Below, in pieces: positions 34,939 through 37,914 of a stretch of DNA of 64,000 nt; within the stretch, counting starts at the first letter, position 1, and every line of letters begins with the position of its first letter. This stretch comes from Dictyostelium discoideum (Eukaryota). The stretch lies in NCBI GenBank assembly GCA_000004695.1, contig CM000151.3, forward strand, positions 1,408,001 to 1,472,000, given 5' to 3'. The notes under the pieces are model-generated. The model had not been told where the DNA came from. It did no database searches and was given only the letters and a program-made list of their open reading frames with translations. Position numbers and translations under genes: made by a program.

Positions 34939-37914
34939 ATGAATATTTCCCTTTTATTAAACAATAGAAATAGAAATAGAAATAATAATAATAATAATAA
35001 TAATAATAATAATAATAATAATAATAATAATAATAATAATAATAATAATAATAATAATAATAATAATAATAATAATAATAACAATAATAATAATAGTAAT
35101 AATGGTAATGCCAATGAAAGCGCTAGTTTAAATAATGGTAGTGAAGAGATTCGATCTAATCCATCATCTAATTTTTCATCACCCATCCAATCATCATTGT
35201 CCTCATCATCTTCATCATTGTCTAGCAACCAAGCAACAACACCAAAAAAGAGATCACACGCACATAAAAATTCACTAAAATGTCAATCTCCACAAATGTC
35301 ACCACAAATGTCTCCACAAATGTCGCCACAAATGTCACCACCATTACAATATTTTCCACAACACCAAATGCAACATCTTAGTCAATATCAACTCGATCAC
35401 CTTCAACAACAACAACAATTAATTCAACAAGAACAACAAGAAAAACAACAACAACAACAACAACACCAACACCAACAACAACAACAAGAACAACAAAAAC
35501 AACAACAAAAACAACAACAAAGATTATCTCCTCAACCAAGATCCTCACAACCAAGATCATCTCCACCAAGATCATCTCCACAAAGATCACCACAATTAAA
35601 CCAACAAGAAGGACACATAAATAGTGTCCAAACCTATAGTGGTAATAATATCAATGATAAAAATCAAAACAACACCAATAATAATAATAATAATATGAGT
35701 AATAATAATAACTTCCATGATGATAATAATTGTAATGTAAATTACAATAACATTAGAAATAATAGCAATAACAATAACAATAACAATACTAATAATAATA
35801 ATAATAATAATAATAATAATAATAATAATAATAATAATAATAATAATAATATTAATAATAATAATAATAATAATAATAATAGTAACAATAATAATTGGAA
35901 TAACAATTATTGTAACAATTCTTTTGCCGACGAAACTAACAAAAATAATACTTATGGAATGGAATATATTAACATTTCAGAAGAAAACCAATATAACAAT
36001 AATAATAATAATAATAATAGTAATAATAATAATAATTATAATAATTATAATAATTATAATAATAATAATAATAATAATAATAATAATAATAATAGTAATA
36101 ATAGTAATAGTAATAATAATAATAATAATAATAATAATAATAATAATAATAATAATAATAATAGAAACAATATTATTAATAGCAATATTAACAATAGCAA
36201 TAATAATAATTATAATGACAATGGATATAACAATAATAGTAATATAAATAGTAATGATAGCTATAACAATAATAATAATAATAATAATAATTTTAATAAT
36301 AATAATTTTAATAATAATAATAATAATAATAATAATAATAATAATAATAATAATAATAATAATAATAATAATAAGAATAATAATAATAGTAATAGTTATA
36401 ATAATAATAATAATAATTATAATAATAATAATAATAATTTCCACAATAATAACAACAATAGCGCCCACAACAATAACAATAACAATTATAATAATAATAA
36501 TAATAATAACTATTATAATAGCAATAACAACAATAATTTCCACAATAATAATAATAATAATAATAATAATGGAAATAATTTTAATAATAATAATAATAAT
36601 AATGGCAATAATGGTAATATGTTTACCAATGTAAATAGTATAGATAATGTAAATAGAAACAACTATAATAATTATAACGGTAATAATAATTATAATGGTA
36701 ATAATTCAAATAATAATAATAATTCAAATAATGAAGTTTCACAAATTACTACAACATCACTACCAGTTAAGAAAACAAAAGTTTTCAAAGCACCAAGGGA
36801 AAAGAAATTCAAAAGAGGACCAGATCAAGATATTAGAGAGATTAAACCAGCCACTGCTTTGTTAAAGCAATATTTTATTGGAAATAGTATCACTGAATTC
36901 AATGCTGAGAGAGTTGGTTCAATTTTAAAGATTAACCATGAAAAGTTAAAAGATATCCTTGACATTATGGAATGTGCTAGTTTGGTAATCAATAACCATA
37001 GTAATAATTATGTTTGGTTAGGTCTTGATAATCCAGGTTTCCTCAAATTGGTTTTCAATGTTTTCCACTGTTCTTCTAATCTTGTCACTAAAGAACCCGA
37101 ATTTGCTTGTTTAAAATGTAAAGAAAACGCCTATAGATGTCCGACCTCTGTTGATTTACCAAAAGATACAAGATTAGGTTCAACTGTTTGTCAATTTATG
37201 AAATTATTATTATCAAAAAGAATTAGAACTAATCCAGTAAATGTAAAGTATTTTTTTTTTTTTTTTTTTTTTTTTTTTTTAATTAAACTTTTGTATTAAT
37301 TTTTTTTTTTTTGAAAATTATAGGATTTCTTAACAATCTATCAAGTTTGCTTTAATTTTAATTTCTGCTCAGAAGGTAGATGCCCAGAAGAAGATTTCAA
37401 GTATCTTAGAAATACTGCTAAAGTAAAGAGATGTTATGATGTTGCCAACGTATTCAATGGTTTAAATATTTTAGAAAAAGTTGGTAAATCTAAAATACAC
37501 TCTTATCAATGGTGTGGTGATTTTACAATTCAAGATTGTGAAAATGGTTGCCCATTTGGTCATCCATTACTTACACCAGGAACTGCATATACAACAAATC
37601 CTTCACCCAATCCATTCAATCAATTTAGCAATGCATATATCTCTTCATCTGCTCAATCTTCTTTATCAAACTCTCCATTCATTCAAGGTGGTTTCCATGG
37701 TAACAACAATAATAGTAATAATAACAATATCAATGGAAATAATATCAATGGAAATAATAACTATGGCTATAATAATAATAATAATTATAATAACTACAAT
37801 AGTAACAATAGCAATGGCTTTAATAACGGAAATTCTTTTTTCCAACAACAACAACCCTTGGTTAATAGCGGTGTTTCCATGGTGAGAAATAATAACTATA
37901 GCTATTCTCCATAA
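34939..37914 (+). CDS. Atypical E2F-like transcription factor candidate with two tandem E2F/DP-type winged-helix domains and long poly-N/Q tracts, 2 exons: 34939..37242 (donor could instead be 37236) and 37324..37914.
   Basis: Domain 1: ALLKQYFIGNSITEFNAERVGSILKINHEKLKDILDIMECASLVINNHSNNYVWLG aligns with the E2F DBD [60 protein letters not shown], but its RRxYD contact motif is degenerate. Domain 2 (exon 2): KVKRCYDVANVFNGLNILEKVGKSKIHSYQWCG matches the canonical RRIYDIxNVLEGIxLIEKxxKNxIQWxG. The donor is GTAAAG, the acceptor TTATAG, both phase 0. The N-terminal ~600 aa is poly-N, poly-Q and S/P-rich repeats. Confidence 0.6.

Follow-up and report, generated by a model that had tools for sequence, protein, structure and literature searches.

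A Dictyostelium discoideum gene for a diverged, atypical-E2F-like protein with two tandem winged-helix domains and a degenerate DNA-contact motif in the first

The gene described here occupies positions 34939 to 37914, on the forward strand, of a 64,000-nucleotide stretch of the Dictyostelium discoideum genome (contig CM000151.3, positions 1,408,001 to 1,472,000), which is called the window below. With a G+C content of 21.8%, long A/T runs and AAT repeats, the window is typical of Dictyostelium, and the locus reads as an intact two-exon gene of this organism. Its product carries two winged-helix domains of the E2F/DP type in one chain, and it is probably a highly diverged relative of the atypical E2Fs, as an earlier note on the same DNA, made from the letters alone, had proposed.

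The start codon, at 34939, follows an A-run and opens a frame of 786 codons (34939..37299 in the list of open reading frames, ORFs), which would stop at 37299 if it were left unspliced. Splicing out 81 nucleotides keeps the frame and gives a product of 964 amino acids (aa), closed by a TAA stop at 37912..37914. Exon 1 (34939..37242, +; codons 1-768), delimited by the ORF list, translation and composition, comprises an Asn/Ser/Gln-rich N-terminal region, a basic stretch, the first DNA-binding domain (DBD1), a linker and the first helix of the second domain (DBD2). The intron (37243..37323, +) is in phase 0 and nearly all A/T, with a GTAAGT-like 5' end (GTAAAG) and a 3' end in ATAG. Exon 2 (37324..37914, +), as translated after this GT..AG splice, is open over 196 codons and runs through the remainder of DBD2 into a C-terminal tail that translation and composition show to be rich in Asn, Ser and Gly (residues 849-964 and the stop codon; 37564..37914, +).

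The splice has support from homology. The Pfam match to the second domain begins within exon 1 and crosses the junction uninterrupted, and the spliced ...RTNPVN/DFLTIYQVC (the slash marks the junction) aligns continuously with ...RSN--KDFLSLEQIC of the closest relative, a protein referred to here as P0001; a mis-spliced gene model was rejected on this continuity. The phase and the limits of the intron are those given in the earlier note, which had placed it between the two domains; it lies instead inside DBD2, which it cuts after the first helix.

Most of the protein is of low complexity. Residues 1-598 consist of 53% Asn, 10% Ser and 9% Gln, so that the description of the first 600 or so residues as low-complexity sequence was right and their description as almost pure poly-N/Q was not. 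The protein becomes Asn-rich again over residues 851-964, and normal composition is confined to approximately residues 599-850. Long Asn/Gln-rich regions of this kind are the typical low-complexity tails of Dictyostelium proteins. They were expected to have concealed the gene from similarity searches. This is not the case, because the full-length protein still reaches 40.6 bits in Pfam and the E2F_TDP proteins of D. discoideum have been catalogued through InterPro entry IPR003316 (PMC6873476).

The presence of two tandem E2F/DP winged-helix domains in the C-terminal part is confirmed by several comparisons. Against Pfam E2F_TDP (PF02319; cutoff 25.7 bits), the C-terminal 296 aa of the two-exon translation score a significant 45.2 bits (E 7.6e-12) over two matched stretches, and domain 2 alone scores 32.3 bits. 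The full-length scan gave no family besides E2F_TDP: no DP-dimerisation, coiled-coil/marked-box (E2F_CC-MB), transactivation or pocket-binding domain was found. DBD1 (residues 633-698; 36835..37032, +) is, from profile scores and alignments, a winged helix of the atypical-E2F DBD1 type. DBD2 is divided by the intron. Its N-terminal part (residues 741-768; 37159..37242, +), with the first helix CQFMKLLLSK, lies in exon 1 and is placed by the start of the Pfam match and by a helix in the AlphaFold model. Its C-terminal part (residues 769-835; 37324..37524, +) has an extra, Cys-rich loop of 10 residues, the recognition helix and a wing ending in W-C-G; it is defined by the Pfam score of domain 2, by the score on a DEL-type DBD2 profile (35.1 bits) and by AlphaFold.

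Which branch of the family do these domains resemble? Sub-family profiles were compared, those for atypical-E2F DBD1 and DBD2 being made of non-dictyostelid sequences and those for E2F and DP including Dictyostelium's own E2F and DP. For domain 1, the atypical DBD1 profile gives 31.9 bits (E2F1-6, 11.7; DP, 4.2; atypical DBD2, 2.4), and domain 2 does best on the atypical DBD2 profile (atypical DBD1, 21.0; E2F, 18.2; DP, 17.4). The best of 1000 shuffles per domain were 5.8 bits for domain 1 and 6.0 bits for domain 2, so that domain 1 is a genuine, though degenerate, E2F-type domain, and a chance match was rejected. By the measure of Cao et al. 2010 (PMC3224931), applied with small profiles, the protein is more like E2F7/8 than like E2F1-6 or DP. 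It does not have the marks of a canonical E2F1-6, having two DBDs, no CC-MB match and E2F profile scores of 11.7 and 18.2 bits; nor does it have those of DP (TFDP), with no DP domain match and DP profile scores of 4.2 and 17.4 bits. On this sequence evidence, each domain corresponds by position to a domain of the atypical E2Fs, an E2F-like DBD1 followed by a DP-like DBD2.

In a search of PDB sequences, the top match was E2F8 (4yo2), in an alignment that covers both of its DBDs, followed by E2F4. AlphaFold models a construct of 225 aa as two winged helices, with confidence over both domains and the linker; in construct numbering, DBD2 has helices at 113-126 and 168-182 and strands at 186-189 and 196-199. 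In the prediction, the two domains pack against each other as they do in E2F8 bound to DNA, and the linker helix lies behind them. The superposition on E2F8, which had been suggested as a check, is good over the whole chain, at an identity of 17-18% in structural alignments, and for the two domains together E2F8 gives the best structural match.

Human E2F8 and E2F7 (4YO2) are among the closest known systems. Like the Dictyostelium protein, they have two E2F_TDP winged helices per chain, E2F-like and DP-like in that order, a linker helix after DBD1, the DBD2 signature K-x-[KR]-R-x-Y-D-[IV]-A-N-V, and no DP- or pocket-binding domains; the helix after DBD1 and the YD[IV]ANV of DBD2 are common to E2F7/8/DEL proteins. 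There are also differences. Where the human DBD1 reads RRRIYD, the Dictyostelium one reads EKLKD, and DBD2 has KR instead of RR; in addition, the Dictyostelium protein has the Cys-rich DBD2 loop, a linker of ~45 aa instead of 82 with a His/Cys motif that E2F7/8 do not have, and huge Asn-rich low-complexity flanks.

As for the canonical E2F-DP pair (Dictyostelium e2f, DDB_G0284129, and tfdp2, DDB_G0276799; E2F4-DP2, 1CF7), the winged-helix fold is the same, DBD1 of the model fitting E2F4 at 1.6 A, and a two-domain DNA clamp of the same kind would be expected in the Dictyostelium protein too. In the canonical pair, however, the domains are on separate chains, joined by the coiled-coil/marked-box and regulated by Rb (rblA), whereas none of these domains occurs here and the E2F and DP profile scores are clearly below those of the DEL profiles.

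The relatives were sought by an exhaustive phmmer search of 1.84 billion representative proteins (E <= 1e-3), which gave 18 matches, every one of them (18/18) a two-domain protein. Together with the position-specific profiles, this upholds, at the level of homology and architecture, the atypical E2F (E2F7/8/DEL-like) reading of the earlier note. The best match is P0001 (KAM9979251.1), a hypothetical protein of Dictyostelium cf. discoideum (488 aa, 32% identity over the two-domain region, E 4.7e-19). It is probably a paralogue, because the N-terminal peptide is common to both proteins (MNISLLLNN here, MDITLILNN in P0001); the linker FH-x-CxxC, the DBD2 insertion and the Cys-rich tail are shared as well. 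P0001 differs in its modest length and in the degeneracy of both recognition helices (ATISN and NSIYN, within residues 262-488), and its Pfam score, 26.9 bits, is barely at threshold.

Next come three proteins of Acytostelium subglobosum and then PPL_04042 and PPL_01634 of Heterostelium album, both named 'E2F/DP family winged-helix DNA-binding domain-containing protein' in UniRef; one match is a EukProt entry, and the remaining ones are E2F7/8/DEL-like proteins of other eukaryotes. The dictyostelid DEL-like proteins (PpalDELa, PpalDELb, DfasDEL and those of Acytostelium) are the nearest relatives after the paralogue (E 1e-10 to 1e-5) and have the same architecture. In PpalDELb and in the proteins of Acytostelium the linker motif FHSxxN...EFxCxxC recurs, and so does a conserved tail behind DBD2. 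Unlike the D. discoideum protein, most of them keep RR[FI]YE in DBD1 and [KR]R[LIV]YD in DBD2, end soon after DBD2 and are without the DBD2 insertion. A word-indexed protein search with the 265-aa C-terminal region and a 9-sequence dictyostelid alignment gave no match, though members of the alignment are in the collection; the index is unsuited to this family.

How does this gene relate to what has been published? Cao et al. 2010 reported E2F7/8 in animals, plants and Monosiga, and none for D. discoideum (PMC3224931). The Dictyostelium Rb paper gives one E2F (DDB_G0284129) and one DP (DDB_G0276799) (PMC3386910), and the E2F/DP sequence set of Medina et al. 2016 represents D. discoideum only by DdisE2F and DdisDP, next to DfasDEL, PpalDELa (= PPL_01634) and PpalDELb (= PPL_04042) (PMC4862756). 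Forbes et al. 2019 listed the IPR003316 proteins of five dictyostelids; there are five in D. discoideum, namely e2f, tfdp2, the tfdp2-related DDB_G0288967, and 'a set of 2 genes unique to Ddis', DDB_G0282499 and DDB_G0272264, of which the latter is given as prespore-specific/prespore-enriched (PMC6873476). A full-text literature search found no paper for DDB_G0272264, DDB_G0282499, DDB_G0288967 or neighbouring identifiers, and a 2025 paper on dictyostelid transcription factor knockouts makes no mention of E2F genes.

Together with its paralogue, the gene matches the pair described as 'unique to Ddis', of which it is probably a member. Some 6 kb downstream lies a class V myosin gene with a DIL domain, encoding ~2200 aa (44059..44997 and 45329..51004, +; Myosin_N, a motor split by an intron, IQ motif, C-terminal DIL), which is probably myoJ (DDB_G0272112) and would place the window on chromosome 2. 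Since this neighbour fits myoJ, the gene is probably, by linkage, DDB_G0272264. In any event, it is almost certainly catalogued already as an E2F/DP-family factor.

Another question is how the two domains would meet DNA. In E2F8, DBD1 is the E2F-like half, which reads GGC, and DBD2 the DP-like half; the arginines and the tyrosine of RRLYD make base and backbone contacts, and two residues located N-terminal to DBD1, Arg113 and Lys114, reach into the minor groove (PMC4686757). Alignments place EKLKD (residues 668-672; 36940..36954, +) at the position of the RRxYD contact motif in the recognition helix of the Dictyostelium DBD1. The domain still has its hydrophobic pattern and the Y-x-W-x-G of the wing, and the earlier note was correct in describing a first domain that is degenerate at its contact motif and retains the terminal W-x-G. 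In DBD2, the alignments give KRCYD (residues 803-807; 37426..37440, +; context KVKRCYDVANVF), and the helix reads KRCYDVANVF, to be compared with K[IV]RRLYDIANVL in E2F7/8/DEL. The RRxYD-type signature attributed to this domain is therefore retained, except for the first Arg. RRxYD itself is not found in both recognition helices, the two motifs being EKLKD in DBD1 and the conservative KRCYD in DBD2. Just upstream of DBD1, the sequence has a basic stretch, KKTKVFKAPREKKFKR (residues 611-626; 36769..36816, +), which may serve in nuclear localisation, in contacting the minor groove, or in both.

A degenerate first domain had been thought unusual. Among the dictyostelid relatives, this does not hold: the DBD1 motif is RR[FI]YE in PpalDELa/b, DfasDEL and two others, TRMYS in two Acytostelium proteins, ATISN in P0001 and EKLKD here. 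As aligned, degeneracy of DBD1 is a recurrent feature of the clade.

The inter-domain linker (37066..37191, +; alignments and AlphaFold) contains a His/Cys cluster, H710, C711, C724, C727, C734 and C751, and so the Cys cluster seen earlier between the domains is real (residues 710-751). A motif FH[SC]xxN(x6-8)EFxCxxC is present in 6 of the 9 aligned dictyostelid proteins and absent in non-dictyostelid atypical E2Fs. Its H-x13-C-x2-C is conserved in 6/9 of the dictyostelid relatives, the fourth ligand is not conserved, and in several dictyostelid proteins the first helix of DBD2 has a Cys at its beginning. In the AlphaFold model the linker is ordered and forms a hairpin and then a short helix, with values of 84-94 in the predicted local distance difference test (pLDDT). 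Pfam gave no match on the linker alone for this protein; that of PpalDELb has a weak match to the Herpes_UL52 zinc-finger region (E 2e-4), and marginal zinc-ribbon matches among the relatives are inconsistent. A zinc site in the linker is possible, the residues of the cluster being its candidate ligands. After DBD2 there is a further Cys/His tail, CGDFTIQDCENGCPFGH (residues 832-848; 37513..37563, +; alignments), which is partly common to P0001 (SGCASSMECKSSCP).

One can go further and imagine that the atypical E2F has been remodelled in dictyostelids, with a structural zinc site, built from FHSxxN...EFxCxxC and the Cys at the beginning of DBD2, that would hold the two domains together as a clamp and, in the D. 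discoideum pair, would have freed DBD1 from base reading. Such an E2F, of a 'half-site plus zinc-linker' type, would have a novel DNA specificity or a zinc- or redox-sensitive activity, possibly serving prespore differentiation rather than cell-cycle repression. This scenario is a speculative one, and quite improbable.

Considering the whole, the most probable reading is that the locus is an intact two-exon gene for a highly diverged member of the atypical-E2F lineage, which includes E2F7/E2F8 in animals, DEL in plants, and PpalDELa/b and DfasDEL in dictyostelids, and that its product works without DP. Membership of the lineage would be a matter of descent, as the alignments indicate, and functional equivalence is a separate matter. 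From the architecture, the predicted packing and the lack of Pfam dimerisation or pocket-binding domains, we infer a single chain that needs no DP partner and behaves as an intramolecular pseudo-heterodimer. Through KRCYD, DBD2 would still be able to bring Lys/Arg and Tyr into the major groove, and its target is probably a single half-site containing G/C. In DBD1, Glu, Lys and Lys replace Arg, Arg and Tyr, and recognition of the canonical GGC/CGC half-site has probably been lost by this domain; the loss of these residues suggests that it is mainly a structural partner that positions DBD2, or that its specificity has changed.

For this reason, canonical high-affinity binding to TTTSSCGC/GGCGGG is doubtful, and the expected target would be relaxed, a half-site or altered, rather than the classic TTTSSCGC. 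A scan of the 64-kb window for TTTSSCGC found a single site, TTTCCCGC at 12881..12888 (+), with 0.84 expected by chance; it is far from the gene and no more than chance would give, and there is no sign of E2F autoregulation.

Several points weigh against this reading. The hallmark RRxYD is absent from DBD1. Mutating either DBD of E2F7 is said to abolish DNA binding (Di Stefano and colleagues in 2003, Logan and colleagues in 2004); if both domains are needed, a protein whose DBD1 is without RRxYD may not bind DNA in E2F fashion at all. Domain 1 alone scores only 17.4 bits on E2F_TDP (E 0.0037), under the cutoff, and the second domain is the only stretch reported in the full-length Pfam scan, for which reason routine annotation would probably record one domain only. 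As for the comparisons, the sub-family profiles are small (8-13 sequences each), the atypical-E2F set was drawn from matches to the same query and may favour it, and AlphaFold may reproduce the arrangement of E2F8 from its training data. Exact look-ups in protein collections found neither the spliced protein nor the product of the unspliced ORF. Finally, the probable assignment to DDB_G0272264 depends on linkage to a myosin gene whose identity as myoJ is itself a probable one.

Could the gene then be a decayed paralogue? Here the E2F fold would have been kept and sequence-specific DNA binding lost, the protein acting through protein-protein contacts, for instance as a decoy or scaffold, or having little function and drifting after a species-specific duplication. 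The loss of Arg-Arg-Tyr from DBD1 and the Lys in place of the first Arg of DBD2 are what such decay would look like, and the closest paralogue is degenerate in both domains. The pair is reported as unique to D. discoideum, implying fast, lineage-specific evolution, the nearest relative is only 32% identical, and the reported dependence of E2F7 on both DBDs, mentioned above, is in line with a loss of binding. Nevertheless, a frame of 964 codons is intact and has canonical splice sites, the hydrophobic core, the W-x-G of the wing and the KRxYDxANV of DBD2 are kept, the model is confident over both domains and the linker, and a basic stretch still precedes DBD1. Decay is accordingly the alternative to be taken most seriously, and an unlikely one.

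Far less credible is an independent dictyostelid origin of the tandem, by duplication of a canonical E2F domain or by an E2F-DP fusion, outside the E2F7/8/DEL lineage. Sequence divergence is high, and a published Bayesian tree of dictyostelid E2F/DP domains sets the Ddis pair apart. However, each domain scores best on the matching atypical-E2F domain and much worse on E2F and DP profiles that include those of Dictyostelium, the basis on which fusion or independent duplication was rejected; the helix after DBD1 and YD[IV]ANV are common with E2F7/8/DEL, and the whole-chain superposition on E2F8 is good. A wrong gene model or a pseudogene, in which exon 2 is not joined to the ORF starting at 34939 and the domain-2 similarity is a relic, would suit the absence of both exact products from protein collections, but is just as implausible in view of the canonical GT..AG, phase-0, 81-nt A/T-rich intron, of the E2F_TDP match and P0001 alignment made continuous by splicing, and of the 196 open codons of exon 2.

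The window holds other features as well. An MFS-type transporter ORF (4468..5964, +; MFS_1, E 4.7e-35) is followed by an ORF for a Kelch-repeat beta-propeller (8330..9310, +; E 4.5e-78). A 293-aa ORF (23432..24313, +), for which Pfam gives no match, has a high content of Gln, Asp/Glu and Asn and contains 'LEQYLxxQQQ(I)QQ' segments in repeated form. By eye, an ORF at 26465..26818 (+) is NDUFA5/B13-like, and the adjacent ORFs 41219..41584 and 41736..42209 (-) look like exons of an NDUFA9-type gene (NAD-dependent epimerase-like, the 39-kDa subunit of complex I). Two small Cys-rich ORFs (28300..28728 and 28863..29153, -), one with a signal-peptide-like N-terminus, are maybe exons of a gene for a secreted Cys-rich protein. 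A reverse-transcriptase ORF (53647..54708, -; RVT_1, E 1.6e-29) lies ~2.6 kb from a tRNA-Phe(GAA) gene (57351..57424, -), a proximity that recalls the retrotransposons of Dictyostelium that target tRNA genes.

What does this gene add to the E2F story? Surveys of the Rb-E2F network list one E2F, one DP and no E2F7/8 for D. discoideum (PMC3224931, PMC4862756, PMC3386910), and in the dictyostelid transcription factor catalogue the two additional E2F-like genes figure as orphans of this one species (PMC6873476). The contribution made here is a domain-by-domain link of the gene to the dictyostelid DEL-like proteins (the group 1/2 cluster) and to E2F7/8, and the comparison suggests that the atypical-E2F branch was retained in D. 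discoideum but has strongly diverged. It also offers the hypothesis of a DP-independent, DBD2-driven factor, which may be prespore-enriched.

The general understanding of the E2F family is unchanged, and the gene is a modest addition to a known family. The natural loss of RRxYD in one domain would still provide a small, useful test of the share that each half of the E2F clamp has in DNA recognition.

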